In this document: positions 1-30,303 of the stretch, in pieces
Layout: every line of letters begins with the position of its first letter
Numbering within the stretch: position 1 is the first letter of the stretch
DNA from: Chitinophagales bacterium
GTDB lineage: Bacteria; Bacteroidota; Bacteroidia; Chitinophagales; LD1
DNA length: 64,000 bases
Assembly: GCA_046329575.1 (NCBI GenBank)
Contig: JAXLUJ010000006.1
Coordinates: forward strand, 166,121 to 230,120
Direction of reading: 5' to 3'
Notes under the pieces: model-generated
Told to the model about the DNA's origin: nothing
Databases searched by the model: none
Seen by the model: the letters and a program-made list of their open reading frames with translations, nothing else
Made by a program: the position numbers and the translations under genes

Positions 1-3000
1 TGCTGTAGGTAGCATTCACTGCGCCTGAAATGGAACTATTGCCTTTTTTCCATTGGTAAGTAAGATTAGCGCCGGAAGCCACTACGTTGAAATTTACTAA
101 TGAACCCGTGCAAGTAGTTTGTGAAACCGGATTAGTAGTTATTGCTGTAGCCGGATTTACCAAAACTGTTGCAATTGCCGATGTTTTACTGCCACAAGTT
201 CCGGTAATCAGCACGGTATAATTGCCTGAAACTCCTGTTGAAGCGCCGCTTACACTATAGTTGTTTGCAGTAGCAGAAGTAATATCGATGTTATTGCGTT
301 TCCATTGATAGCTCAATCCGGTGCCGGAAGCAGTTACAGAAAGATTGAGATTTCCACCTTCGCAAATGGTTGCGGCAAGCGGTTGTTGCATAATAATTAT
401 GGTGTCGTTTACGGTTACTAATTTCGAAGCTGAAGCCGAACAATTGTTGCCATCGGTTCCGGTAACGCTGTAAGTGGTGCTTATTGAAGGAGAAACATTT
501 TTGGTATTGCCTGAGCCCAAACCGTTGCTCCAATTGAAAGTGAGCGCGCCACCGGCAAGAAGCGTAACCGCACTTCCCTGACAAGTGCTGGTTGCTGTGG
601 ATGGCAAAATCGTAATCACCGGAAGAGCATTCACACTCACCAAACGCGAAGCAGTGGCCGAGCAGTTGGCATCGCTCACCGTAACTGTATAGGTAGTATT
701 TCCCGATGGCGAAACCGTTACTGCCGCATTACTTCCCAAACTATTACTCCATGAATAAGAGGTTCCCCCACTAGCGGTGAGAGTAGTTGAAGTACCTGCG
801 CAAATGGCCACTGAAGATGGCGTGATAGTTGCCGGCGGAAGAGCATTAACGGTAACGATTCGTGAAGCGGTTGCCGTACAGTTATTGGCATCAGTGCCGG
901 TAACCGTGTAGGTGGCTGTATTTGCCGGACTGAATGTGGCAGCAGCATTATTCCCTCCTGAATTGCTCCAATTATAGGTTGAAGCGCCACTAGCCGTGAG
1001 CACTGCAGAACTGCCCGCGCAAATACTGGCCGAGGCCGGTGAAATGGTTACAATGGGTAATGCGTTCACCGTAACTAAACGACTGGCGGTAGCGGAACAA
1101 TTCGCATTTGATACCGTTACGGTATAAGTTGTAATTCCTGTTGGCGAGAAGGTAGCCGCTGCTGCGTTTCCGCCGCTATTGCTCCAACTATAAGTTCCAC
1201 CACCTGATGCAGTCAGCGTAGCCGATGCACCGCTACAAATCGTAACGGTTGCGGGAGTAATAGCAGCCGTTGGCAAAGCATTCACGGTAACAAGGCGCGA
1301 TGCAGTTGCTGAGCAGTTATTTCCATCAGTAACCGTTACCGTGTAGGTAGTGGCGATGGTTGGCGAAACAGAAACCGATGCATTGGTACCAAGCGAATTG
1401 CTCCAGTTAAAACTAGTTGCTCCGCTTGCCGTTAGCGTAGTAGAAGCACCGGCACAAACGGCTGCACTGGCCGGACTAATTGCCGCTACCGGATTGGCAT
1501 TTACATTCAGGCGGCCGATGTTAGAAACGATAGCGCCGCAACTGCCGCCGCCAACCGTAAGCGTATAATTTCCGGAATCAGAAACGGCTACAGCAGCAAT
1601 AGTTAGCGTTGCCGTGGTTGCTCCTGAAACCGCACCTCCGTTTGAAATGGTTACGCCATTTTTCTTCCACACATAAGAAGTTGGTGAGGCACCGGTTGTA
1701 GCAGCAGTAAAGCTTACAGCCGTTCCAACACATTTATTTTGAACTGCAAGAGGCTGTGTGGTAAAGGAAATATTGTTGGCCGACAAAGTGAGTTTTGCTG
1801 TTTTCGATTCTGAACCGTAACATCCATTCAATACAATACAACTATAGTTACCACTATCGCTCAGCGCCAGATTGTTCAGCGTAAGCGAAGCGCTATTTGC
1901 GCCAATAATATCTACTCCATTTTTCTTCCATTGATAAGATAATCCTGTTCCAACTGCAGCAACCGTAAACGTGGCACTATTGCCGCTGCAGGCCGTAACA
2001 TTAGCCGGCTGTTGTGTAATGGCAGGCGCTTCCATCATAGCGCTGATTTCTGTAGCATCTAAAGCGCGATTGTAAATACGAACATCATCAATGGCTCCCT
2101 GCAACACATTACCGCCGCCTTGATCGGCACCAATAATCAATGGATTGCTGTTATTGGTGATGTTTCCTGAAGCAGCGGTGGTGAGAATTAAAACCCCATT
2201 GATGTATTGCTTTACATTGGCGCCATCGTAAGTGCAGGCCAAATGATACCAGGTATTGCTGGAAAGCGAATTGGTAGGATGATAGGCATTACCAAGCATG
2301 ATAACGCGAGGACGGCTCAGGTAAATGTCCATCAAAAAGTTGTTGGAATTATTCTTATCGATCAGGCGCTGATTCGAAGAAATGCTGCTCGATTTCATCC
2401 AGCACGACATGGTAAATTGATTGGTAAAACTTGCGATTGGCACAGCAGAGTTAACACTGGTTTGATTGGGTACCTGAAGCGCAGCATTCGCTGTTCCGTT
2501 ATGATCAGTAGTGTACGCTGCACCTGCTGCCAGTAAGTGAAGTGCATTACCGCTAACATCGTTTACGGCTGCGCCATTTCCCATGGGATAGTGCACTACC
2601 AATCCACTTGCCAATACCACCGATGCCGTTCCGAAATTAATTTTCGCCACATTCGAAGTGGCAGCAGCGCCGTTGCAGTTGGTTACTACGCAAGTGTAGC
2701 TGCCGCTATCGGCATAACTTACATTATTGATTAATAGGGTATCGTTGGTTTGGCCGGCAAGCGCAACATTATTTTTCTTCCATTGGTAAGTACAAAAAGG
2801 AGATGTACCTATGGTAAAAGAAACAGATCCGCCTACACAAGCGGTTTGATCAACCGGCTGATTGGTTATTTGAACGGTTGTAGAAAAACGAAGATGCGCG
2901 GCACTGCTGGTATCGCTGCCACAGGAATTTGTAGCAATCACTTTGTAAAATCCGGTATCGGATGCAGTAACATTTACAAACGAAATGGAATTGGTATTCA

Positions 3001-4693
3001 CACCGCTTAGGTTACCGCTGTTCGCCAGCAGCACATTATTTTTATACCAGGCGTAGCTCACCGCATCGCCATCTACAACAGCGGAAAGGGTGTGCGAAAC
3101 ACCTAAACAAATGCTACTATCGGAAGGAGGAACTGCTACAATGGGTGCACAGCCAATCTTGGCAAGATAACCATCAGTACCTACACTGTTAGTGAATGTA
3201 TTTTTTGAAAGTGTAATCACATTACTAAACCGACCTTCTACGTTCGGACGGTCGTCGAACCCCGACATCCGAAGCGTATGCGTTCCGGTGTTCTTCACCT
3301 TTACATACTTTTCCCAGGTTGCATTTCCGCCGCCTGTATATTTCATTCTGAAAAACAAGGTTCCGTAGTTGGCATTGTTGATAGGATTTAAGGCGGCGCT
3401 TCCGGCAGCAAATGCAGGTGTAAAATTCATGCTTTCCGCACCGGCGCCATTTGTGGTAATGGCCAGCCAAACGCGTCCTGTGGAATCGTAGCAGATACTG
3501 CTTGCAGCGATCTGTGAGTTGTATCCTGAAGAAGCAATATCGTTTTGCCAAACATCTACGAAAGAAGTGTTCATAGCCCGAACATAAATGTGCGTAGGCT
3601 GTGTAGCGAACGATCCGCCTTCGTAGGTGTACGCAATTTCATCGGTTGACTTATTGATGGCCATATCGGTAAGCGTAGTTGGAATGGTGGCCGATAACTG
3701 AAGATTTCCTGTAGAGGCCACATTGCCCAAACTGCCATTTACACGGAAGATACGACCGTAGCGGTTTGAATTTCCTGAAGAAACAGCAAGCGGACCGCCT
3801 CCTGAAAAGGTGAAGGCGCTGGCATTTATAAAATCACATGCAATCAACAAATTGCCGGAGTTATCGGCGGCCAAGGCCTTGATAAATTCCTGTCCGGTAG
3901 TGCCTACGGCACTCATACCAATCCGCTGCGAGGCTACATAATAGCCATTGTCAATATTCACAATTCCATAAAACGCTTCGCGAAAACCGGTGTTGTCGCA
4001 ATTGCCCAAACCGGTAACTACCGCAGGCGAACTTCCCGGACTATAGTGAGAACTGTTATAGGAAGTGTTGGTGGTTGTAGTAGAGAATGCAAAGAACAAT
4101 TTGTTGCGATAACGATTGATGGCCAACTTCATCATATCTACATTTCCCTTTTCGCATTTAAAGCGATTGGTCCATTTTGCAACACCGGAACTATTCAGTT
4201 TGGTGATGTAACCATATTTTTCGTTTACAGGTGTTACACCGGCCAGAAAATAAGTAGTGTCGTTGCCATTGGCAAAGTAGGCACTGCCGTAAGCCACAGG
4301 CGAATAACCACCATAATAAACGTTGGTGTTGCTATCCACAACTATTGAAGATGCTTCAAGCACACAAGTGCCGTTATCAGTGGGCGTGTGCAGCCAGATG
4401 AGATTGCCCGAGGGATTGAATTTGGCCACGAACGGCAGGAAACTGGACGGTGAAACTGTCGAAATACTTTGCGCACCAATAGTGAGTGTGCCGCTGTAAC
4501 GGCCCAGTACATATACGTCGCCATAACGGTCGTGAGTCACATCGGTAGTGTAAGCGTAGCCGCCATTCGAAATTTGTTTAGCCCACTCCCACCCCAATTG
4601 GGCTGTTAGCCGATTGGAACTGAATAAAAAAACGCAACACAGCGCAAAAAAGAACGTCCGCTTTCTTCCTTTTTTGTAAGTATCTAAGTCCAT
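1..4693 (-). CDS. Giant secreted multi-domain surface protein (adhesin-like, probable T9SS cargo); the C-terminus runs off the window edge, so it is missing from the supplied ORF track
   Basis: My own minus-strand translation from the ATG at 4693 (MDLDTYKKGRKRTFFFALCCVFLFSSNRLTAQ, signal-like) stays in frame to position 1; I checked the frame at 4693, 2611 and 4. It contains a LamG/concanavalin-like segment (WYHLACTYDGANVKQYINGV...GAIDDVRIYNRALDATEI, approx 2040-2610) and Ig-like modules with YQWKKNG motifs. About 5 tandem ~76-aa modules (RLVTVNALP..I.P....IC.G.S..LTASG..Y.WSN) lie at approx 400-1500. Confidence 0.85.
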   Translation of the reverse strand, partial: MDLDTYKKGRKRTFFFALCCVFLFSSNRLTAQLGWEWAKQISNGGYAYTTDVTHDRYGDVYVLGRYSGTLTIGAQSISTVSPSSFLPFVAKFNPSGNLIWLHTPTDNGTCVLEASSIVVDSNTNVYYGGYSPVAYGSAYFANGNDTTYFLAGVTPVNEKYGYITKLNSSGVAKWTNRFKCEKGNVDMMKLAINRYRNKLFFAFSTTTTNTSYNSSHYSPGSSPAVVTGLGNCDNTGFREAFYGIVNIDNGYYVASQRIGMSAVGTTGQEFIKALAADNSGNLLIACDFINASAFTFSGGGPLAVSSGNSNRYGRIFRVNGSLGNVASTGNLQLSATIPTTLTDMAINKSTDEIAYTYEGGSFATQPTHIYVRAMNTSFVDVWQNDIASSGYNSQIAASSICYDSTGRVWLAITTNGAGAESMNFTPAFAAGSAALNPINNANYGTLFFRMKYTGGGNATWEKYVKVKNTGTHTLRMSGFDDRPNVEGRFSNVITLSKNTFTNSVGTDGYLAKIGCAPIVAVPPSDSSICLGVSHTLSAVVDGDAVSYAWYKNNVLLANSGNLSGVNTNSISFVNVTASDTGFYKVIATNSCGSDTSSAAHLRFSTTVQITNQPVDQTACVGGSVSFTIGTSPFCTYQWKKNNVALAGQTNDTLLINNVSYADSGSYTCVVTNCNGAAATSNVAKINFGTASVVLASGLVVHYPMGNGAAVNDVSGNALHLLAAGAAYTTDHNGTANAALQVPNQTSVNSAVPIASFTNQFTMSCWMKSSSISSNQRLIDKNNSNNFLMDIYLSRPRVIMLGNAYHPTNSLSSNTWYHLACTYDGANVKQYINGVLILTTAASGNITNNSNPLIIGADQGGGNVLQGAIDDVRIYNRALDATEISAMMEAPAITQQPANVTACSGNSATFTVAAVGTGLSYQWKKNGVDIIGANSASLTLNNLALSDSGNYSCIVLNGCYGSESKTAKLTLSANNISFTTQPLAVQNKCVGTAVSFTAATTGASPTSYVWKKNGVTISNGGAVSGATTATLTIAAVAVSDSGNYTLTVGGGSCGAIVSNIGRLNVNANPVAAISPASAAVCAGASTTLTASGATSFNWSNSLGTNASVSVSPTIATTYTVTVTDGNNCSATASRLVTVNALPTAAITPATVTICSGASATLTASGGGTYSWSNSGGNAAAATFSPTGITTYTVTVSNANCSATASRLVTVNALPIVTISPASASICAGSSAVLTASGASTYNWSNSGGNNAAATFSPANTATYTVTGTDANNCTATASRIVTVNALPPATITPSSVAICAGTSTTLTASGGTSYSWSNSLGSNAAVTVSPSGNTTYTVTVSDANCSATASRLVSVNALPVITILPSTATSTCQGSAVTLLAGGALTFNWSNGLGSGNTKNVSPSISTTYSVTGTDGNNCSASASKLVTVNDTIIIMQQPLAATICEGGNLNLSVTASGTGLSYQWKRNNIDITSATANNYSVSGASTGVSGNYTVLITGTCGSKTSAIATVLVNPATAITTNPVSQTTCTGSLVNFNVVASGANLTYQWKKGNSSISGAVNATYS

Positions 4694-4759: not shown

Positions 4760-4848
4760 TAGGTTTCAGTTCACAAGCAGCAGGCCCTTTTCAGAAATCC
4801 GACTTCGGTGCTGCATTCCGACCGCTCAGAATGGTCAGGTGTTTCAAA
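4760..4848. repeat. Probable degenerate copy (reverse orientation) of the GC-rich interspersed element family
   Basis: The reverse complement contains GCAGCACCGAAGTCGGA...AAAGGGCCTGCTGC. This resembles GGAGCACCGAAGCGATAGCGGA...AAAGCGCGGGTGCCGC in the 44139-44242 copy. Confidence 0.4.
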
Positions 4849-4850
4849 CT

Positions 4851-5003
4851 CGCAGCTCATAGCTCAAAGCTCACAGCTCAAAGCTTTCCTCTTGCATCTT
4901 GCATCTTGCATCTTGCGTCTTGTGCCTTGCATCTTGCGTCTTGCGTCTCGCGTCTCGCATCTTGCATCTTGCGTCTTCCTCTCCCCTCTCTTCCTCCTCT
5001 CTT
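4851..5003. repeat. Heptamer-block array, left arm: AGCTCAN block, CTTGCRT block (about 12 units), CT-rich block
   Basis: 7-nt periodicity read directly from the sequence. It is a module-level reverse complement of 5941-6071. Confidence 0.85.
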
Positions 5004-5031: not shown

Positions 5032-5940
5032 ATGATCAAAAAGTGGCATATCAAGGCTGTTGTGCAGAAAACTATTTCCTGGCTGCCTTACAAGCATTCC
5101 ATAAATTATTTATTTCAGCGGTATGTTACACGCGGCGTCTTACTTACTGATGCCCTTTTTACTGACAAGTTGGAACATCTTCGATTTCATATTGAAAAGC
5201 AGCGTAAATACAGCCACGTGCCTTGTGATGTGTTGGAAATTGGAACCGGCTGGTATCCGGTAATTCCGTTGGGAATGCTGCTGGCCGGGAATAGAAGCGT
5301 ATCCACATTCGATATTGTTCAACTGGTTACTTCACAACAAGTCCGCGATACCTTGCGCTGTTATGTGAGGTGGCATGAAGCGGGCAAGCTGGAATCATAT
5401 ATTCCCAATTACGATCATGCGCTGATTGAAAAGTTTCGCGATGTACTTAAAGAAGAACATCGCGACCCGTTGTTGGAATTCGGCATTCAGTATGTATCGG
5501 GAAATTTTCCGGATGCTTTCAAAAAGCCGGAAGCATTTGATCACATCTGTTCCAACAACACTTTCGAACATATTTATGAAAATGCGCTTCGCGAAACGCT
5601 TTCCATCTTTCGAAAAATTCTTAAACCAAATGGTGTGATGAGCCATCATATTGATATGTCTGATCACTTTGCGCATCTCGATAAAACCATCACCCCATTT
5701 AATTTTCTTCAGTTCAATGATGCCGATTGGCAATGGATTGACAATACCGTTCAACCACAAAACCGACTGCGTTGTTCCGATTTCGAAAAAATGATACGAG
5801 AGGCCGGCTTTGAGATTTTGGAAGAACATCAACTGAGTGGTTCGCTTCATGATTTAGCAAAGATCAGCTTAGCTCAAAAATACAGCCACTACCGGCCGGA
5901 AGATCTTGCGGTGACTCATGTGTATTTTACGTGCAGATAA
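5032..5940 (+). CDS. Class I SAM-dependent methyltransferase
   Basis: 302-aa ORF with motif I VLEIGTGWYP, followed by ICSNNTFEHI and LKPNGVMSHHID (Methyltransf_11/23-like pattern). Confidence 0.8.
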   Translation: MIKKWHIKAVVQKTISWLPYKHSINYLFQRYVTRGVLLTDALFTDKLEHLRFHIEKQRKYSHVPCDVLEIGTGWYPVIPLGMLLAGNRSVSTFDIVQLVTSQQVRDTLRCYVRWHEAGKLESYIPNYDHALIEKFRDVLKEEHRDPLLEFGIQYVSGNFPDAFKKPEAFDHICSNNTFEHIYENALRETLSIFRKILKPNGVMSHHIDMSDHFAHLDKTITPFNFLQFNDADWQWIDNTVQPQNRLRCSDFEKMIREAGFEILEEHQLSGSLHDLAKISLAQKYSHYRPEDLAVTHVYFTCR

Positions 5941-6071
5941 AGGGGAATTTTAGGAGAAGAAGGCGCAAGACACAAGAGGCAAGACACAAGATGCAAGACA
6001 CAAGACACAAGACACAAGAAGCAAGAGTAAAGCTGTGAGTTTTGAGCTATGAGCTATGAGCTACGAGCTGC
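5941..6071. repeat. Heptamer-block array, right arm: AG-rich block, GCAAGAY block (about 9 units), TGAGCTN block
   Basis: It starts on the base after the methyltransferase stop codon. It carries the same three modules as 4851-5003 in inverted order. Confidence 0.85.
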
Positions 6072-6184
6072 TAGTAGGGAAATTCAAACCACTTGCCGGG
6101 AATAACTGACAAACTGGACGTGAAAGACATACAGCGGATTATTGAATCGAACACAACTTCTTATCTTAACATCAAATCTGCATC

Positions 6185-21338: not shown

Positions 21339-22274
21339 TCACTTCTTTTCGATTTTCTTCTTAATCTTTAACCGAAGTTCATCGTATTCTTCGTTATAGC
21401 GTTCGCTGCGCAGATACAGATAAAAAGAAAAAATGGAAAGTCCGTTGAACAAATGCCATAAACTGTGCGGACTGATCCAGGCATTGGGATCGCACATCAG
21501 TTTTTTGATGTCGAATTCGAAGAAAATACCGGCCAACAGAATACAACAAATGGTAGCCATCAGGTAATCTTTATTGGTTTGGCCCGGGTCGCGGCGTTCC
21601 AGATAGAATCCGAAGCCGATAATAAAGAAGATGATGCCGGCCACAATCAGATGTACCTGATGCATGGGAATTACAAAGGTGAGCAATATGTAGAGCGAAC
21701 CAAATACGGAAATCATGATAATGCGTTCGTTCCAGTGTTTTACATTGGTAGGTTTACCCCGAAGCACCAGGGTAAGGCGATGGGTGAGGTACATTAACGG
21801 AAATAGCGTGATGCTGTACACTGCCGAAAAATCCATTTTAGAAGCCGAGAGCGCCAGTGAGGAATGAAAGAACGAACTGCTGATGAACACATACAGCATA
21901 ATGATGGAATACACAAAAGAATAGAAGTGATTTGCGGTAATGAGATTGTAGTTGCGGTTGCGCTTTTTATCTTCTAACCCTTTGCTGAACGAATAAATAC
22001 AGAGCACCAGATAAATGAAGTTGGTGAAGGTGTTCATAGGCTGCCTGATCACCCGGTTCATATCGGTATATTCGCAAAACCAATGGCCGATATTGGCTTC
22101 GGTGACCCAATTATCCCAAATGTGGCTGGGATAGAAGATATTGTTGATAATGGTTATCAGCGTTCCGAAAATGACGGTGGCTACGAATGAAATCAGAATC
22201 CGCTGGCGGTAAGCTTCCCAGAAATAGTGGCGGAGAAAGGCAAGGTGGCGACGCAAACGGTAGCGAACTGTCAT
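21339..22274 (-). CDS. Ceramidase-family (alkaline phytoceramidase-like) integral membrane protein
   Basis: I re-called the start to MTVRYRL (ATG at 22274). It is multi-TM, with WFCEYTD...QPMNTFTNFIYL and a C-terminal SLWHLF motif. Confidence 0.6.
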   Translation of the reverse strand: MTVRYRLRRHLAFLRHYFWEAYRQRILISFVATVIFGTLITIINNIFYPSHIWDNWVTEANIGHWFCEYTDMNRVIRQPMNTFTNFIYLVLCIYSFSKGLEDKKRNRNYNLITANHFYSFVYSIIMLYVFISSSFFHSSLALSASKMDFSAVYSITLFPLMYLTHRLTLVLRGKPTNVKHWNERIIMISVFGSLYILLTFVIPMHQVHLIVAGIIFFIIGFGFYLERRDPGQTNKDYLMATICCILLAGIFFEFDIKKLMCDPNAWISPHSLWHLFNGLSIFSFYLYLRSERYNEEYDELRLKIKKKIEKK

Positions 22275-22353
22275 GGCTGTAATTAGCAAGGTGAAAATAG
22301 CAGTAATAAAAATTAAGAAACAAGTTTCGGGCAGCTTGTTACATTTGCCGCCT

Positions 22354-22782
22354 ATGAAAAAACTTTTTGTGTTAGCGCTTCTGTGCGGAGTAATGCTCAC
22401 AGCCTGCCGCAAAAAAGGCAATCCCAATGCCGGATTACCTGCTTCTATTTTAAAAGATACCACCACCATTCAGTTTGAGGAAACCGAATACAATTTCGAT
22501 ACCATCAAACAAGGTGAGAAGGTGACGCACATTTTTAAAGTAAAAAACACCGGCGAGCGCGACCTGATTATTGCCAATGCAGTAGGTTCGTGCGGCTGCA
22601 CGGTTCCTGAATATCCTAAAGAACCGGTGGCCAAAGGCGCTACGGCCGAAATTAAAGTTACGTTCAATTCGGAAGGCAAAAGCGGCGAACAACACAAATC
22701 GGTAACGCTTCAGGTGAATACCGCACGCCATAACGAAATGATTTTCCTTAATGGTTTTGTAAACGCTCCAAAAGAAGACTAA
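22354..22782 (+). CDS. DUF1573 lipoprotein
   Basis: I re-called the start to MKKLFVLALLCGVMLTAC (ATG at 22354). Core motif F.VKNTGERDLIIANAVGSCGCTVPEYPKEPV. Confidence 0.8.
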   Translation: MKKLFVLALLCGVMLTACRKKGNPNAGLPASILKDTTTIQFEETEYNFDTIKQGEKVTHIFKVKNTGERDLIIANAVGSCGCTVPEYPKEPVAKGATAEIKVTFNSEGKSGEQHKSVTLQVNTARHNEMIFLNGFVNAPKED

Positions 22783-23173: not shown

Positions 23174-24436
23174 ATGATTCCATTGCCGGAGCGGCTGCGG
23201 CCGAAGCGTTTTGAAGATTTTGTTGGGCAGCAACATTTGTTGGGCGAAGGCAAAGTGCTTCGAAAACTGATTGAATCGCAGGCCATTCCTTCCATGATTT
23301 TTTGGGGGCCTCCGGGGGTGGGCAAAACTTCTATTGCTCGTTTTATTGCCGAAAAAGCTACGCTTCCTTTTTATGCGCTTAGCGCCATTGATGCCGGCGT
23401 GAAAGAAGTGCGCGCCGTGATCGAAAAGGCCACGCAGCAAGGTCAGGCCATTCTGTTTATTGATGAAATTCATCGTTTCAACAAGGCGCAACAAGATGCA
23501 TTGTTAGGCGCTGTGGAACGCGGCACCATCATCCTGATTGGCGCCACTACCGAAAACCCGTCATTCGAAGTGATCTCAGCGCTGTTGTCGCGCTGCCAGG
23601 TGTACATTTTAAAATCACTGGAACGCAGTGAGCTGGAACAATTGGTGCATAGTGCGTTGCAAAAAGACGAATGGCTACGTACGAAAAATGTGACTATTGA
23701 AGAAACAGAAGCCTTGCTGCGCTATAGCGGCGGCGATGCGCGGAAGTTGCTGAATGTACTGGAATTGGTAGTGAAATCGTTTGACGAAAATCAACAACCT
23801 AAAAACATCACCAATGCTTTTGTGGAATCGGCCATTCAACAAAAAATGGCGATTTACGATAAAAGCGGAGAACAGCACTACGACATCATTTCAGCCTTTA
23901 TCAAATCCATTCGGGGCAGTGATCCCAATGCGGCTTTGTATTATTTAGCCCGAATGATTGAAGGCGGTGAAGACCCGAAGTTTATTGCGCGGCGTTTACT
24001 GATTCTAAGCAGTGAGGATATCGGCAATGCCAATCCGAATGCGCTGCTGCTGGCCAATGCCTGTTTTCAGGCGGTAACTACCATTGGCTATCCCGAATGC
24101 CAGCTCACCCTTTCACAAACTGTAATTTATTTAGCTACGTCTCCGAAAAGCAACAGCGCCACCACAGCCATTGGCGAAGCCCGCGCTAAGGTGCGCGAAA
24201 CCGGCGATTTGCCTGTTCCGCTGCATTTGCGCAATGCACCAACCAAACTGATGAAACAATTGAACTATGGGAAAGATTATCAGTATGCGCACAGCCATGA
24301 AGGCAATTTCATAGCCGATGAGTTTTTACCCGAAAAAATAAGCGCCACCAAATTTTATGAACCGGGCAACAACGCCCGCGAAAATGAAACCCGCAAACAG
24401 TTACGCCAGTGGTGGAAGGAGAAGTACGGATATTGA
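23174..24436 (+). CDS. rarA: Replication-associated recombination protein A (AAA+ ATPase)
   Basis: Walker [10 protein letters not shown], Walker [13 protein letters not shown], and the MgsA C-terminal region [12 protein letters not shown]. Confidence 0.9.
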
Positions 24437-24496
24437 AAGGGGAAAGTTGAAAGTTTCAAGTGAAAAATTTTAAGTGGAAAGAGAAAGTTGGAAGTC
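24435..24496. repeat. Heptamer-block array (GTTGAAA/GTGAAAA/GTGGAAA type), left boundary of the AT-rich island
   Basis: Reads GAAAGGGGAAAGTTGAAAGTTTCAAGTGAAAAATTTTAAGTGGAAAGAGAAAGTTGGAAGTC. Confidence 0.7.
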
Positions 24497-24608
24497 TTTC
24501 ATGTTTTTAAGACGCAAGAAATAGAAATCGAAACCCAAATGTCGAAAACAATATTTCAGCTTAGGAAAAGCGAGTTTAGGTAAAACAAAAAAACTAATAA
24601 TTGCTTTC

Positions 24609-24869
24609 CTAATTTACCTTCACCAAATCACTAAGAGATAAGTCAAGAGCGTCTGCGATTTTTTTTAGAGAACAAATAGAGACATTTAATTCACCACGTT
24701 CAATCCGGCCAATTTGTTCAGCGTGATTATTAATTCTCACGGCTAAGTCCAACTGAGTATATCCTTTTGAAAGACGAACGGAGCGAATTCTTCTACCTAG
24801 TAGTTCTAAAAAGCCATCATCTTTTACCGATTGCACTCCACAACAATGGGTCCCTAAGCCAAGAAACAA
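24609..24869 (-). CDS. XRE-family helix-turn-helix transcriptional regulator
   Basis: LGRRIRSVRLSKGYTQLDLAVRINNHAEQIGRIERGELNVSICSLKKIADAL. The track start is a TTG inside the palindrome; a GTG at 24836 is an alternative start. Confidence 0.8.
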   Translation of the reverse strand: MFLGLGTHCCGVQSVKDDGFLELLGRRIRSVRLSKGYTQLDLAVRINNHAEQIGRIERGELNVSICSLKKIADALDLSLSDLVKVN

Positions 24870-24892
24870 TAGAACATATATGTTCTATTGTT
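24865..24892. promoter_or_regulatory. Perfect 28-bp palindrome, candidate operator of the XRE regulator
   Basis: AACAATAGAACATATATGTTCTATTGTT equals its own reverse complement. It sits at the 5' end of the XRE gene in the divergent intergenic region. Confidence 0.6.
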
Positions 24893-25038
24893 AAATAATT
24901 CTCTTATCTTCGAAAAAATCTTCGCCTATGGTATGACAAACGAAAATTCTGTCCTTTGATTTGCGGACAAAAATTAAAGCAAATCGAGCGTTCGCCGAAA
25001 AGCTATATAGAGTAGGTGTCAACTAACCAAAAATCAAA

Positions 25039-25494
25039 ATGAAAAAACTAATTTTAATTTGTTCGTTATCTATTGCATCCGTAAATTTTTGTAGTGCACT
25101 CGCATATGTCTGCTATTCTACTTCATGGGGGCCAAACTGTTTTGGATCAAATGGTAACTGTGACTATTTCTATAGCCATGGATGTAATACAAACTGCACG
25201 TGCACACAACTTTTACAATATCAACCAATTTGGAATAGAACAGATTTCACTTTCGGTTCAGAAAAGGAAAACTCTGTTTCCATAAAAAATTCTGAAGGAA
25301 AAATTATTGCCAATTTAGAACTCAATGACATTCCGGAAGGATCAGTTTTCCGTATAGATTATATCGAAAGTCTTAATATTATGTGCTTCCGCTTTTACAA
25401 CGGTGTTTTGCTTTCAAAAATTTCGGATATAAAAAATGCTAGTCCGTGTGAATTCGATGAGGCTTTGGTTAAAGAGATTAAAATATCTATTTAA
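25039..25494 (+). CDS. Small secreted Cys-rich protein, unknown function
   Basis: Signal peptide MKKLILICSLSIASVNFCSA. The Cys-rich stretch is YVCYSTSWGPNCFGSNGNCDYFYSHGCNTNCTC. Confidence 0.6.
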   Translation: MKKLILICSLSIASVNFCSALAYVCYSTSWGPNCFGSNGNCDYFYSHGCNTNCTCTQLLQYQPIWNRTDFTFGSEKENSVSIKNSEGKIIANLELNDIPEGSVFRIDYIESLNIMCFRFYNGVLLSKISDIKNASPCEFDEALVKEIKISI

Positions 25495-26308
25495 CTTTCT
25501 AATAATAAAACAAGGAGGAATCATTTGGGTCTTCCTTGTTTTATCAACAAAACTGATAGCCCAAAGCAATCTGGTTCAGAACGGAGATTTCGAAAGTCTA
25601 TTGAAAATCCCCGCAATTAATCTCTCGAACGGACCGCAGAGCGGGGCGGTTATAATTGAAGATTCATCGGTAGGATGGCAGGTTTCAAATCGTGAATTGG
25701 TTCCGGTAATATCTGATTTCTGGAATTTTTCTGACATGAATAACCGTGTTTGTTGCAATGCTTTTTACAGTGATTCCAATATTGCATATAGTGGCAAGGT
25801 GTTTTCCTATTGCTATCTCATCAATATGATTTCAGAAAAAGAAGGTTCAGCAGTTTTGCTGATCGGAACTCTTGCTCAGCCTTTGCAATCAGGCAAACTG
25901 TATCGCCTCTCATTTAAGGCAAAATACTTTTCCGGGACGGTTACAAGCGACAGCATCGCCGTTGGCTTAACAAAAAAACCACCAATTCAAGAAGTGAACT
26001 ACACTTCAAGAAATGATCGCTTGCTTTCAAATGCTGCATCATGGTCAAATACTCGTTTGCCTATGAGGAGAGAAATTGATGACTACCAATTGCTCACCTT
26101 TGAATTTAAAGCGAAAGGCAGTGAAAAGTATATCGCCTTAGGCGCTGACGGAAATTTCAAATTCAAGAAATTAAAAAAACCATTTGGCAAATTCCGAAAC
26201 GACAATCACCTACCCTTTTTGATGATAGCGATAGACGATGTACGTGTTGAACCCATAGAACCTGAAAAAAATGGTTTAGGTAAAACCATAATCAGAAGTG
26301 CGGAATAA
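25457..26308 (+). CDS. Secreted protein with N-terminal NLVxNGDFE jelly-roll (CBM4_9/galactose-binding-like) signature
   Basis: Hydrophobic leader IIWVFLVLSTKLIAQ followed by SNLVQNGDFE. The start is uncertain (25436 or 25457), and the ORF overlaps the upstream ORF. Confidence 0.6.
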   Translation: MRLWLKRLKYLFNFLIIKQGGIIWVFLVLSTKLIAQSNLVQNGDFESLLKIPAINLSNGPQSGAVIIEDSSVGWQVSNRELVPVISDFWNFSDMNNRVCCNAFYSDSNIAYSGKVFSYCYLINMISEKEGSAVLLIGTLAQPLQSGKLYRLSFKAKYFSGTVTSDSIAVGLTKKPPIQEVNYTSRNDRLLSNAASWSNTRLPMRREIDDYQLLTFEFKAKGSEKYIALGADGNFKFKKLKKPFGKFRNDNHLPFLMIAIDDVRVEPIEPEKNGLGKTIIRSAE

Positions 26309-26410
26309 ACTATCTGAGATGTCTTGAATCTTACAGCAACTGCCCTTAGTTTCTCCATCAGAATCGATGAAACTAGTTTTAACTTCAGCGTAGATTACAA
26401 ACACCAAGCT

Positions 26411-26447
26411 AAATCAATTTTTCACTGTCCACTTAAAATTTAAAACT
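26411..26447. repeat. Inverted heptamer-block arm, right boundary of the AT-rich island
   Basis: Its reverse complement AGTTTTAAATTTTAAGTGGACAGTGAAAAATTGATTT carries the same GTGAAAA/TTTTAAGTGGA blocks as 24435-24496. Confidence 0.6.
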
Positions 26448-27350
26448 CTAAAACAGTCCGAAAAGCTCCGTATTCACGCGGTGGATTACATCTGACAGCG
26501 CGTTTTCATCTTCGGCAAAGTTGGTTTGATCAACATCAATAATCAATAACCTGCCGGTGTAGGAACTAATCCATTTTTCGTAGAATTCGTTCAGTCTTTT
26601 CAAATAATCTAAACGAAGATTATCTTCATACTCGCGGCCACGCTTCTGAATTTGATTCACTAAAGTGGGTACCGATGCACGCAAATAGATTAACAAATCT
26701 GGCGGACGAATCAGCGAACCAATAGTTTCAAACAAACGCGTATAATTTTCAAAATCGCGAGTGCTCATCAACCCCATGCTGTGCAGGTTGGGGGCAAAAA
26801 TGCAAGCATCTTCATGAATGGTGCGATCCTGAATCACTACTTCTTCGCCTTTCTGGATTTCGATGATTTGACGGAATCGCGAATTGAGGAAGAACACCTG
26901 AAGGTTGAACGACCATCGCGGCATATCTTCATAAAAATCGTTCAGATAGGGATTGTTTTCTACATCCTCATAATGAGGTAACCAACCGAAATGTTTGGCC
27001 AGCAAACGCGTGAGCGTACTTTTGCCGGCACCAATGTTTCCGGCTATGGCAATATGCCTGATCTTATCTTTCGGTATTCTTGGTACGCCTTTATTTGCGA
27101 CACTTTTCTCCACTTCCGCCACCGGTTTTTTGGCAGCCGGAATTTTCACTTTTGCGGCAGCCTTGGGAGCAGGTTTCGCAGCCGGTTTTGGAGCAGGTTT
27201 CGCAACTGCTTTGGCCTTCACTGCCTTTTTTGCAGGCGCTGCGGCTTTCTTCAAAGCCTTCTTCGCCGGCTTTTTGGCAACTGATTTAGGGGCTGTTTTT
27301 TTCTTCACTGGCATACCGAGGGATTTGGGAAGCATTGCTGCTCCATTCAT
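26448..27350 (-). CDS. Deoxynucleoside kinase with an approx 95-aa Ala/Lys/Pro-rich N-terminal extension
   Basis: P-loop [14 protein letters not shown], then [27 protein letters not shown] and a DR motif region. The N-terminus reads [42 protein letters not shown]. There is no ATG between that region and the kinase core. Confidence 0.8.
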
Positions 27351-27394
27351 AATTAGGTGCGCCGAAAATAGAAAAATTCTTCTCCAGTATTTGC

Positions 27395-27402
27395 TATTTT
27401 TG
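27395..27402 (+). promoter_or_regulatory. Candidate Bacteroidota -7 promoter box (TAnnTTTG) for gcvP
   Basis: TATTTTTG lies 25 nt upstream of the ATG at 27427. Confidence 0.35.
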
Positions 27403-27426
27403 CGGCCTAAAATTCTACGGCTTTCT

Positions 27427-30303
27427 ATGCTGAATTTACGTTCTACCGACGCGTTTGTAAACCGTCACTTAGGTCCCAACTCACACGAAACTTCTGAAAT
27501 GCTCAAAGCCATTGGCGTAGCCAGTGTGGATGAACTGATTGCACAAACCGTTCCGGCAGCCATTTTGCGCAACCGACCGTTACAGTTACCTGAAGCCCAA
27601 AGCGAATACGACTACCTTCGCTTTCTTCGTCAGAAGGCCGCAAAAAACAAACTCTTCAAAAATTTCATCGGTTGCGGTTATTACGGCACCATCACTCCTG
27701 CTGTGATCCGGAGAAATATTCTCGAAAATCCGGGTTGGTACACCCAATACACACCTTATCAGGCCGAAATCGCACAAGGCCGCCTGGAAGCATTGCTGAA
27801 TTTCCAAACTATGATCAGCGACCTCACCTCCATGCCGGTGGCCAATGCCTCGCTGCTGGATGAAGGTACGGCAGCCGCCGAAGCCATGCACATGTTCTGG
27901 GGAGTAAAGAATAAACGCGAAGCAGAATTCAATAAGTTTTTTGTATCCGAAAAATGTTTCCCGCAAACTATTGATGTAATCAAAACCCGCGCACACATCC
28001 TGGGTATTGAAGTAGTAATTGGCGATCACAACACTATTGCAATTGACCAGCAATTCTTCGGGGCTTTACTGCAATATCCGGCTATTGATGGAAATGTTCA
28101 CGATTACAGCCCTTTTGTAAGTAAATGTAAGGCGGTGGAATGTTATGTGACGGTAGCCGCCGACCTGCTCGCACTCACGCTCCTGACGCCGCCGGGCGAA
28201 TGGGGCGCTGATTGTGTAGTTGGAAATTCTCAGCGCTTTGGAATCCCGATGGGTTATGGCGGTCCGCATGCCGCATTCTTCGCCACGCGCGACGACTTCA
28301 AACGCATTCTTCCCGGCCGTATCATTGGCGTTTCGATAGATGCGCAACAACAACCCGCCTTGCGCATGGCGCTGCAAACGCGCGAGCAACACATCCGCCG
28401 CGAAAAAGCTACTTCCAATATTTGTACGGCTCAGGCCTTGTTAGCCATTATGGCGGGCATGTATGGCGTTTACCACGGCGGCACAGGTATTAAGGCTATC
28501 GCACTTCGTATCAACACCCTGGCGCTTACACTTCATCAGGAATTAAAGAATCTGGGATTTGAAGTGAACCAACAGCCATTGTTCGATACCGTTTGTGTGA
28601 ACACCAAAGGTTCGGAAAAATTGCACGACAAGATCCACCACATGGCGCTGGAACGCGAAATGAATTTCTTTTACGATGTGCACGCTATTTATATTTCGGT
28701 TGATGAAACCACATCGCCCGAAGATGTTACTGCCATTTGTGGTTTGTTTGCCGAAGCACACGGAAAAACCAATTATGCTTTTGCTATCGAAAAAGCGGCT
28801 GCGGCCGTAAAACCTTATGCACCGCGCACTTCGGCGTATCTCACTCATGCAGTGTTCAACACCCACCGCAGCGAAACCCAATTGATGCGCTACATCAAAT
28901 CACTGGAGAATAAAGACCTAAGCCTCACCAAAAGCATGATACCGCTGGGAAGCTGCACCATGAAACTGAATGCGGCAGCTGAACTGGAGCCCGTGAGCTG
29001 GCCGGAGTTTGGCGGATTGCATCCTTTCGTGCCACAGGAACAGGCTGCGGGATTTCAGGAAATCTTACGTGAATTGGAAAGTTACCTCAGCGAAATTACC
29101 GGCTTTGCCGGAACTTCGCTGCAACCCAACAGCGGTGCTCAAGGCGAATATGCCGGATTGCAGGTAATTCGCGCCTATCAAAAGGACAACGGACAAGCCC
29201 ATCGCGATGTAGCCCTCATTCCGGCTTCGGCGCATGGCACCAACCCCGCTACAGCCGTAATGTGTGGATTAAAAGTGGTAGTGGTAGCTACGAATGAAAA
29301 AGGCGAGATCGACTTTAACGATCTGATGAAAAAGGCAGAGGAACACCGCGATAACCTCTGCTGCCTCATGGTTACTTACCCTTCTACGCATGGCGTTTTT
29401 GAACACAACATCAAAGAAGTTTGCGATTTGATTCACGCACATGGCGGACAAGTTTATATGGATGGCGCGAATCTGAACGCTCAGGTAGGATTGACCGGCC
29501 CGGGTTTCATTGGCGCTGATGTGAACCACATCAATCTGCACAAAACCTTTGCTATTCCTCACGGTGGCGGCGGTCCGGGCATGGGTCCTATTTGTGTGGC
29601 CGAACACCTCACACCTTATCTGCCGGGTAATCCGCTTATCCAAACCGGTGGCGAAAAAGCAATCACGGCTATATCATCAGCGCCTTATGGCAGCGCCAGC
29701 ATTTTGCTAATCTCCTACGGTTATATCCGTATGCTGGGCGCCGAAGGCTGCACGGCTGCTACGAAGTATGCCATTCTAAACGCCAACTACATTAAAGCGC
29801 GGCTGGAAGATCACTTCCCGGTTTTATACACCGGCGATATTCACGGCCGCGTGGCGCATGAACTGATTGTTGATTTCCGCCATTACAAACATACCGTAGG
29901 CATTGAAGTGGAAGACGTGGCCAAACGGTTGATGGATTATGGTTTCCACGCGCCAACGGTTTCGTTCCCGGTTGCCGGAACGTTGATGATTGAACCTACT
30001 GAAAGTGAAGATAAGGCCGAATTGGACCGTTTGTGCGATGCGCTGATTGCTATCAAAGGCGAGATTGAAAAAATTCATGGAAAGGTGTGGGATGCCACTA
30101 ACAATCCACTGAAAAATGCACCGCATACGCTCGAACTGATTACAGCTAACGAATGGACTCGTCCTTACACCCGCGAAGAAGCCGCGTTCCCGCTGCCGTG
30201 GGTTCGCCATAACAAGTTCTGGCCAAGCGTAAGCCGGGTGAACAACTCACATGGCGATAGAAATCTGATTTGTACTTGCCCGGCAGTGGAGGAGTATATG
30301 TAG
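27427..30303 (+). CDS. gcvP: Glycine dehydrogenase (aminomethyl-transferring), glycine cleavage P protein
   Basis: 958 aa from [18 protein letters not shown]. It has the [25 protein letters not shown] and [18 protein letters not shown] motifs. The track ORF's earlier start is an antisense artefact. Confidence 0.95.

Follow-up and report, generated by a model that had tools for sequence, protein, structure and literature searches.

Within a 64,000-nucleotide stretch of the genome of a Chitinophagales bacterium (GenBank assembly GCA_046329575.1, contig JAXLUJ010000006.1, positions 166,121 to 230,120 of the forward strand), called here the window, the convergent housekeeping genes rarA and dnk are separated by 2,011 bp holding three intact open reading frames (ORFs), namely the gene of an XRE-type repressor and two genes predicted to encode secreted proteins, ORF2 and ORF3. 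This segment, called here the island, is best viewed as a small composite accessory islet lying at a rearrangement breakpoint, where a regulatory block native to the family of the host bacterium is combined with a patchily distributed gene cassette, the whole not being self-mobile; the probability given to this reading is roughly 0.6. The genome amounts to 3.50 Mb in 30 contigs, with 44.6% G+C, and the window lies on the contig designated C27. The elements of the island needed to follow the argument are listed below, with positions counted from the first letter of the window.

24609 to 24836, minus strand: gene of an XRE/Cro-C1-type helix-turn-helix (HTH) repressor of 75 amino acids (Pfam HTH_3), start GTG 24836
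24865 to 24892, no strand assigned: perfect 14+14 palindrome made of the half-sites AACAATAGAACATA and TATGTTCTATTGTT (inverted repeat I7, 100% complementary), probable XRE operator
24985 to 25018, plus strand: DUF805b-like leader box GCCGAAAAGCT..AGAGTAGG (Rfam RF02914, 23.8 bits), 20 nt ahead of the ATG of ORF2
25039 to 25494, plus strand: ORF2, predicted secreted protein of 151 amino acids with a six-cysteine module at the N-terminus and about 95 C-terminal amino acids beyond it, recognised by hidden Markov model (HMM) homology
25457 to 26308, plus strand: ORF3, predicted secreted protein of 283 amino acids (290 if read from ATG 25436), with homology of its N-terminal domain to OmpA-family proteins

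In the first instance, base composition supports the view that the island (24437-26447) is foreign. Its G+C content of 36.05% compares with a genome mean of 44.6% and a standard deviation of 2.6% over 17,205 overlapping 2-kb windows, 0.8% of which are as G+C-poor, and the G+C content at third codon positions (GC3) is low in all three genes, i.e., 0.267 for the XRE gene (0.35th percentile among 2,850 ORFs), 0.278 for ORF2 (0.8th percentile) and 0.375 for ORF3 (6th percentile), the flanking genes rarA and dnk having values of 0.514 and 0.46, respectively. The AT-rich island described in an earlier note on this DNA, which had been drawn from the letters of the window alone, is thus borne out; its count of 15 G+C between positions 25039 and 25098 proved exact, and the windowed G+C and codon-usage profile which that note had proposed gave an atypical rather than a genome-typical composition.

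The second line of evidence is the distribution of the cassette formed by ORF2 and ORF3, two reading frames already reported as overlapping and found here to share 38 nt when ORF3 is taken to start at 25457. From word-based protein searches both had passed for orphans, a status overturned by exhaustive HMMER searching and by inspection of gene neighbourhoods. Four of the 301 genomes sampled from the order contain a member of the ORF2 family, with an ORF3-like neighbour in every case, and no member was found in the 31 other genomes sampled from the own family. The pair recurs in three other genomes (G107, G215, and G024) belonging to two other families (f7 and f26), ORF2-like genes lying directly upstream of ORF3-like genes in all three and at two loci in G215. 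Within this sample, the listed matches that cover the N-terminal domain of ORF3 all come from other families, chiefly f26, f18, f24, f7, and f13. Foreign composition together with a cassette present in other families and not found in 31 other genomes of the own family designates the segment as an accessory module, probably acquired, whose origin would be horizontal. As such, the earlier proposal of a horizontally acquired module stands as far as acquisition is concerned, on the grounds of composition and distribution, but not as far as a single unit is concerned. Many ORF3-like genes are solitary and stand in housekeeping contexts, so that the pairing is frequent rather than obligatory. The recurrent tight linkage suggests that ORF2 and ORF3 act together in the cell envelope, where their products may interact. 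Regarding the surroundings of the cassette elsewhere, an XRE-type gene lies upstream and on the same strand in G024; around the copy of G107 (L018, G107:C2:847764-851900), a divergent LytTR-type regulator fragment (414-689, minus strand) was recognised by eye on one side and an IS200/RAYT-like Y1 transposase gene (2935-3420, plus strand) on the other.

The other component of the island, namely the XRE gene with its operator and the leader box, has a quite different distribution. The repressor matches Pfam PF01381 (HTH_3) with 42.5 bits (cut-off 23; E 6.5e-11) and lies on the minus strand, which confirms the divergently transcribed XRE regulator of the earlier note. The longest reading frame (24609-24869) would begin at TTG 24869 and give 86 amino acids; since homologues in the same genus (58% identical in G006, 51% in G003) begin to match at residue 9 of this frame and those called in G003, G335, and G227 begin with MQYVKDE, in line with GTG 24836, the latter is most likely the true start and the protein 75 residues long. 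Its best PADLOC match is the “control protein” of restriction-modification systems (3e-11), a likeness which holds at the generic HTH level only.

Upstream of the XRE start, between the gene and the divergent ORF2-ORF3 operon, sits the 28-bp palindrome, the core of which, ATAGAACAT-NN-ATGTTCTAT, is found at the same position beside the XRE orthologues of genus g1 (G006 and G003) and genus g2 (G335 and G227). The core occurs as one copy per genome in 5 of the 67 genomes of the own family, the reversed-pattern control giving 0, and in none of 270 genomes from 25 other families of the order. Because the core is kept beside the XRE orthologues and the control pattern is absent, the palindrome is probably the XRE operator, for which the comparative evidence is good. 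The arrangement recalls autoregulated repressors of the XRE/Cro-C1 type, such as the phage cI/Cro switches and the C proteins of restriction-modification systems, with which it has in common (i) a small single-domain HTH_3 protein of 75 residues, (ii) a perfect inverted repeat directly upstream of the repressor's own start and facing a divergent operon, and (iii) conservation of this repeat alongside the protein in relatives. It departs from them in its cargo, i.e., secreted proteins instead of a phage lytic set or a restriction-modification system, and in that the operator is a predicted one.

On the other side of the operator, the leader box resembles the DUF805b RNA motif (RF02914), a candidate cis-regulatory element of Bacteroidota, in its length of 35 nt, its 4-bp stem, its conserved AGAGUAGG tail and its place some 20 nt ahead of an operon's first start codon. 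Copies at orthologous positions reach 38.5 bits in G006 and 37.6 bits in G003, and a copy ahead of the ORF2/ORF3 cassette of G107, 22 nt before the start codon, reaches 48.3 bits; both the orthologous and the cassette-linked copies therefore exceed the gathering score, unlike that of the window, and the genes downstream, unlike those of the motif's name, are not DUF805 genes. A literature search on DUF805b gave nothing beyond the discovery paper and brought up no link between XRE proteins and the motif. Comparison of G006 with G003 delimits a discrete homologous block of 343 nt with 79% identity (L138 1494-1836 and L139 1396-1738, respectively), which ends exactly at the XRE stop codon on one side and at the last DUF805b base on the other, with unrelated DNA on either side. 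What follows the block differs from genome to genome: a 178-residue secreted protein and a 143-residue lipoprotein in G006, two other secreted proteins or lipoproteins beside a TraG-like fragment in G003, and, in G335 and G227, a 213-residue protein with a type IX secretion system (T9SS) sorting tail, between an ABC-transporter gene and parB. The regulatory block of XRE gene, operator and leader, about 0.35-0.4 kb in size, is thus native to the own family and carries a different cargo in each lineage. In this respect, the DUF805b box could be a junction for the exchange of cargo operons or, alternatively, the promoter or leader controlling such accessory operons. That the XRE-operator-DUF805b block, which in five genomes of a single family precedes four unrelated cargos of secreted proteins, may be a portable expression platform is put forward only tentatively and with more doubt than conviction.

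Four further DUF805b copies occur in the same genome (G000; loci L148-L151), at C28:92606-92638 (minus strand), at C28:265409-265441 and 265447-265479 (plus strand, in tandem) and at C9:62379-62411 (plus strand), one scoring 34.1 bits and the other three exceeding the gathering score. All of them precede, by some 8-24 nt, the opening gene of a small-protein operon; these operons are mostly AT-rich, most of their proteins have N-termini resembling signal peptides, and one of the copies adjoins an integrase-like gene within a 24-kb region of low G+C content.

That the island lies at a rearrangement breakpoint is deduced from the gene order of relatives, and from here on the flanking features are required.

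23174 to 24436, plus strand: rarA (mgsA), recombination factor AAA+ ATPase, left housekeeping flank (Pfam MgsA_C 4e-70, AAA_assoc_2, AAA; 48.1% G+C)
24434 to 24496, plus strand: left arm, degenerate heptamer array of GAAAGTT, AGTGAAA, and AATTTTA units (direct repeat D1, inverted repeat I1), beginning at the rarA stop
26411 to 26452, minus strand: right arm, degenerate heptamer array of AGTTTTA, AATTTTA, AGTGGAC, and AGTGAAA units (inverted repeat I1), beginning at the dnk stop
26448 to 27350, minus strand: dnk, deoxynucleoside kinase gene, right housekeeping flank (Pfam dNK 2.7e-52; 45.4% G+C)

The closest named relatives of RarA belong to metagenome-assembled genomes of Chitinophagales and Chitinophagaceae, at 65-70% identity, and the relatives compared are only about 75% identical in DNA. 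In none of 30 such relatives are rarA and dnk convergent; they lie on different contigs or are otherwise arranged, and their 3' flanks are devoid of arrays. In G012 (L005, G012:C1:277511-281051), dnk and rarA share a strand, dnk preceding rarA by about 70 nt, and in G008 (L120, G008:C1:453000-457200), rarA is followed by the orthologue of a membrane-protein gene found at 21339-22469 in the window. Since the orders in G012 and G008 differ from that of the window, the present rarA-dnk order implies a local inversion or rearrangement with its breakpoint at the island. Three Logan metagenome contigs (SRR26348419, SRR26348420, and SRR26348422) show an arrangement identical to that of the window. 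As for dnk itself, its reading frame has an N-terminal extension of about 95 residues, rich in Ala, Lys, and Pro, ahead of the P-loop, and is overlapped by the N-terminal extension, spurious in appearance, of an ORF of 1,102 amino acids on the opposite strand (26995-30303, plus strand) that looks by eye like a glycine dehydrogenase.

The inverted heptamer arms by which the earlier note had delimited the island are real, but they are not special to it. Over 33 nt (24454-24486 and 26420-26452), they are 79% complementary (26/33) with a 14-nt exact core, AAATTTTAAGTGGA. Each starts at a stop codon, that of rarA for the left arm (...TAT TGA AAG GGG AAA GTT GAA AGT) and, on the minus strand, that of dnk for the right arm (...TTT TAG AGT TTT AAA TTT TAA GTG GAC AGT GAA AAA). 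The D1 units are 41 nt apart, near 6 x 7 = 42, and by eye both arms keep a 7-nt register; the left one resembles a pure GTTGAAA microsatellite at C26:262150, which likewise starts inside a stop codon. Throughout the genome, Tandem Repeats Finder (TRF) gives 821 period-7 matches, among which 378 arrays score at least 34, their units falling into classes such as GAAAGTT, AAGACGC, AATTACG, GAGCTAC, and others. Convergent intergenic regions, which represent 526 of 2,820 spacers, hold 150 of the 378 arrays, and divergent spacers hold 26. The arms are thus members of a genome-wide class of heptamer arrays following the 3' ends of many genes, not special terminal repeats.

Comparable repeats are known from other bacteria. 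In Xanthomonas and Nostoc, heptamer repeats are over-represented in non-coding DNA, scarce between divergent ORFs and situated, on the sense strand, no more than 50 bp from stop codons (Rehm et al., 2015, PMC4692102). The arrays described here share with these heptameric simple-sequence repeats, and with the cyanobacterial short tandemly repeated repetitive (STRR) sequences, an abundance of non-coding period-7 arrays, proximity to stop codons and rarity between divergent ORFs; they differ in having A/T-rich units (GAAAGTT, AATTACG, and AAGACGC) that do not form G-quadruplexes (G4) and in that many are inverted pairs forming hairpins. Inside the arms of the island, AAGACGC-type heptamer fragments (24497-24540) and fragments of the reverse-complement type, GTCTTGA ATCTTAC (26318-26345), show a weak nested inverted symmetry of about 12/18 bases by eye. 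Elsewhere in the window, inverted TCTTGCR and AAGACAC heptamer arrays of 116 nt (4848-4963 and 5960-6075), 79-87% complementary and far longer than the arms of the island, flank an ORF of 302 amino acids (5032-5940), a putative methyltransferase gene according to the earlier note.

Given arms of this kind, the three genes might be regarded as a non-autonomous transposable element, moved together between terminal inverted repeats. Besides the 33-nt arms with their 79% complementarity and 14-nt exact core, an AT-rich and foreign-looking content would fit such an element. The island, though, consists of three ORFs only, with neither a transposase nor an integrase gene among them; it is single-copy, no second copy existing in the genome; no significant direct repeats flank it, and a target-site duplication, of which there is none, is impossible as the arms directly abut the stop codons. 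Moreover, the sequence of the arms is that of the heptamer arrays typical of many gene ends, the XRE block and the cassette differ in phylogenetic distribution, and both are found in different contexts in other genomes (similar arms not having been searched for in their flanks). We therefore hold a transposable element to be highly improbable.

More deserving of consideration is the idea, put forward in the earlier note as a split-hairpin site, that rarA and dnk were convergent neighbours sharing a single inverted-array hairpin, the loop of which was entered by the 1.9-kb island, the half-arrays being left on either side as arms. Inverted pairs of same-class arrays do peak at spacers of 20-50 nt (58 inverted against 5 direct pairs), a concentration from which it follows that array pairs form hairpins, and such hairpins are common in the genome; arrays are concentrated in precisely the convergent intergenic regions that this scenario requires. 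The joined arms fold at -25.9 kcal/mol; the left arm alone folds no better than its shuffles (z -0.97). In addition, no other 33-mer on either strand of the whole 3.5-Mb genome matches the left arm better than the right arm does (26/33, a tie), of 2,844 gene 3' flanks only 4 align with the left spacer as well as the right arm (local score 34), and the gene at 5032-5940 offers another case of a gene between inverted arrays, those of 116 nt. The ancestral shared hairpin is nonetheless hypothetical, as the present gene order arose by rearrangement: rarA and dnk are convergent in none of the 30 relatives, and in G012 the two share a strand, dnk directly preceding rarA. Inverted same-class pairs show no excess over direct ones when the spacer measures 1-2 kb (26 and 20 pairs, respectively), and array-bracketed genes are not AT-rich, 1 of 23 falling under 40% G+C compared with 8% of unflanked genes; arrays consequently do not look like general landing sites for foreign DNA, and a role for them as landing pads was rejected. 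Insertion into a split hairpin is plausible, since the joined arms fold, and is compatible with most of the composite islet reading; we would call it possible, if rather unlikely.

Turning to the proteins of the cassette, ORF2 is predicted to be exported by way of a signal peptide, within which lie the cysteines at residues 8 and 18. Six others (residues 25, 34, 41, 49, 53, and 55) follow the likely cleavage site between SALA and Y, and two are found further on (residues 116 and 137), so that eight of the 10 cysteines of the protein fall within its first 55 residues; the figure of about nine cysteines in some 35 residues after the signal peptide, given previously, was an overcount. An HMM built from three homologues outside the window has ORF2 as its sole match among 25,659 ORF segments of the genome (E 1.2e-5), the pattern shared by the homologues of G107, G215, and G024 being [VI]CY...C[FY].[ST]N..C.[DY][FI]...C...C.C. 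No match was found for ORF2 in Pfam, NCBIfam, PADLOC, or PHROGs and no sequence relative of its family profile in the PDB, and to judge from these searches the ORF2 family is previously undescribed.

ORF3, for which export via a signal peptide is likewise predicted, can be placed more precisely. A phmmer search against 1.8 billion representatives returned 37 matches with 25-32% identity and E-values down to 1.4e-19. Most of these relatives are about 380-420 amino acids long; their first ~260 residues are those that align (NLxxNGxFE ... YAIDDVxVxP), and 13 of the 16 aligned relatives possess a C-terminal OmpA domain (PF00691). The alignment of ORF3 with the family profile (positions 3-301) scores 285 bits, and the protein stops about 23 residues past the IDDV motif. 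As such, its match spans the complete N-terminal domain of Bacteroidota OmpA-family proteins (about 400 residues, N-terminal NLxxNGxFE...YAIDDV, C-terminal PF00691), and its signal peptide is similar, but it differs from them in having no peptidoglycan-binding OmpA domain, 139 nt being left before dnk. ORF3 gave no match in Pfam, NCBIfam, PADLOC, or PHROGs, PF00691 included, and reading through the 139-nt tail (26309-26447) in search of an OmpA remnant gave only an alignment of low posterior probability. The absence of the anchor means that the product of ORF3 would be either a soluble binder, periplasmic or secreted, or a decaying remnant. A scan of genome contigs with ORF3 found no relative, neither of two alignments examined contained a stretch of sufficient conservation for use as a scan query, and one metagenome scan returned one locus only.

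The NLVxNGDFE opening strand and the IDDV closing strand look typical of jelly-roll modules akin to carbohydrate-binding modules (CBMs). Sub-threshold matches to Pfam CBM_4_9 were obtained for 3 of the 16 relatives, and the best Foldseek matches of an AlphaFold2 model of ORF3 are CBM16, CBM4, MAM, and gingipain adhesin domains, with E-values of at least 1.6e-3 and query template-modelling (TM) scores of at most 0.33. The model itself, calculated from a five-sequence alignment, is a poor one (mean predicted local distance difference test, pLDDT, of 48; predicted TM score, pTM, of 0.54; pLDDT of 42 from the single sequence), and the ORF3-family profile matches PDB chains only via the OmpA domain. 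The likeness to CBM4/9, CBM16, and galactose-binding-like beta-sandwich modules therefore lies in the strand motifs, the sub-threshold matches of relatives and the top structural matches, while ORF3 itself has no Pfam match and both the model and its matches are weak. Of the jelly-roll protein previously announced, what can be kept is a domain that, from weak evidence, is probably a CBM-like beta-sandwich.

Two functions had been speculated upon for these proteins. A toxin or bacteriocin, or more generally a defence role, was rejected, as neither ORF2 nor ORF3 has a family match, be it toxin, bacteriocin, phage or defence, in the four collections and no toxin or defence relative appears in the PDB by sequence. 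A surface-interaction module fits better, the relatives of ORF3 being OmpA-anchored envelope proteins, and a surface or envelope role is the likelier of the two. Neither protein was assigned to an ordinary housekeeping family by profile searches of Pfam, NCBIfam, and the PDB or by the structure search with ORF3. Where the two genes meet, one more element may bear on their expression.

25505 to 25544, plus strand: hairpin with a 15-bp stem (inverted repeat I6), just past the ORF2 stop and within the signal-peptide codons of ORF3

Preceded by a AAGGAGGA run, this hairpin has a folding energy of -18.9 kcal/mol (z -4.5), none of 200 shuffles being as stable. It could set the ratio of ORF2 to ORF3 product, possibly as an intercistronic attenuator or as a translational-coupling element.

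Several observations weigh against the composite islet reading. Respective to composition, the cassette copies of G107 and G215 are likewise somewhat AT-richer than their flanks, so part of the AT bias may be intrinsic to the cassette genes. Respective to ancestry, the relatives of ORF3 are at best 25-32% identical, from which it follows that they point to no donor and that any transfer was not recent; no empty site was found among the 30 relatives, and the argument for acquisition is accordingly one of composition and patchy distribution alone. Respective to the integrity of the elements, the gene caller of the protein database called only the last 160 codons of ORF3, which, deprived of its OmpA domain, may be non-functional, and the DUF805b copy of the window, with one broken pair and a 1-nt deletion, falls under the RF02914 gathering score of 35.6. 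Finally, the two arms are more alike than 99.8% of random pairs of 3' flanks, so that two independent arrays are not the whole story.

Some of these points would suit an old vertical inheritance, in which the three genes became AT-rich through weak expression, fast evolution or decay and were lost repeatedly in relatives. The missing OmpA domain, the great distance of the nearest cassette relatives, the native character of the XRE block in the own family and the AT-richness of cassette copies elsewhere are all in line with it. Many independent losses would nevertheless be needed to account for a cassette present in f7 and f26 and found in none of 31 other own-family genomes; furthermore, the GC3 of the XRE gene and of ORF2 lies below the 1st percentile, which is extreme, and the three reading frames are intact. 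On balance, vertical inheritance is improbable, and the composite islet, i.e., a native regulatory block joined to a patchily distributed cassette, is retained.

The islet so understood would function as follows. A dimer of the XRE protein would bind the palindrome between its own start and the divergent promoter and would thereby act as a repressor of its own gene as well as of the ORF2-ORF3 operon, which appears to begin behind a DUF805b-type leader; this repression is inferred from the architecture of the locus and the conservation of the operator. Upon derepression, ORF2, as a small disulfide-rich protein, and ORF3, as a beta-sandwich binding domain, would be exported. In the canonical family, the OmpA domain would tether the binding domain to peptidoglycan, whereas here that domain would be untethered or defunct. 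As for the arms, they are the 3' heptamer arrays of rarA and dnk.

Considered by itself, the locus is an ordinary small accessory islet, i.e., an XRE repressor with a divergent operon, and a word of caution is in order for other findings from this genome, where the bracketing of genes by inverted arms results for the most part from heptamer arrays that follow gene 3' ends. Its wider meaning is twofold. On the one hand, the DUF805b motif, hitherto an orphan, becomes linked in this locus with a particular repressor and its operator, and also with AT-rich accessory operons whose products are mostly small proteins of secreted appearance, which offers a way of testing what the motif does. On the other hand, the cassette brings to light a new gene pair of Chitinophagales-type Bacteroidota, in which a small disulfide-rich secreted protein would accompany a CBM-like, OmpA-anchored envelope protein, two partners for which neither Pfam nor NCBIfam has a model, be it for the ORF2 protein or for the N-terminal domain of the ORF3 type.

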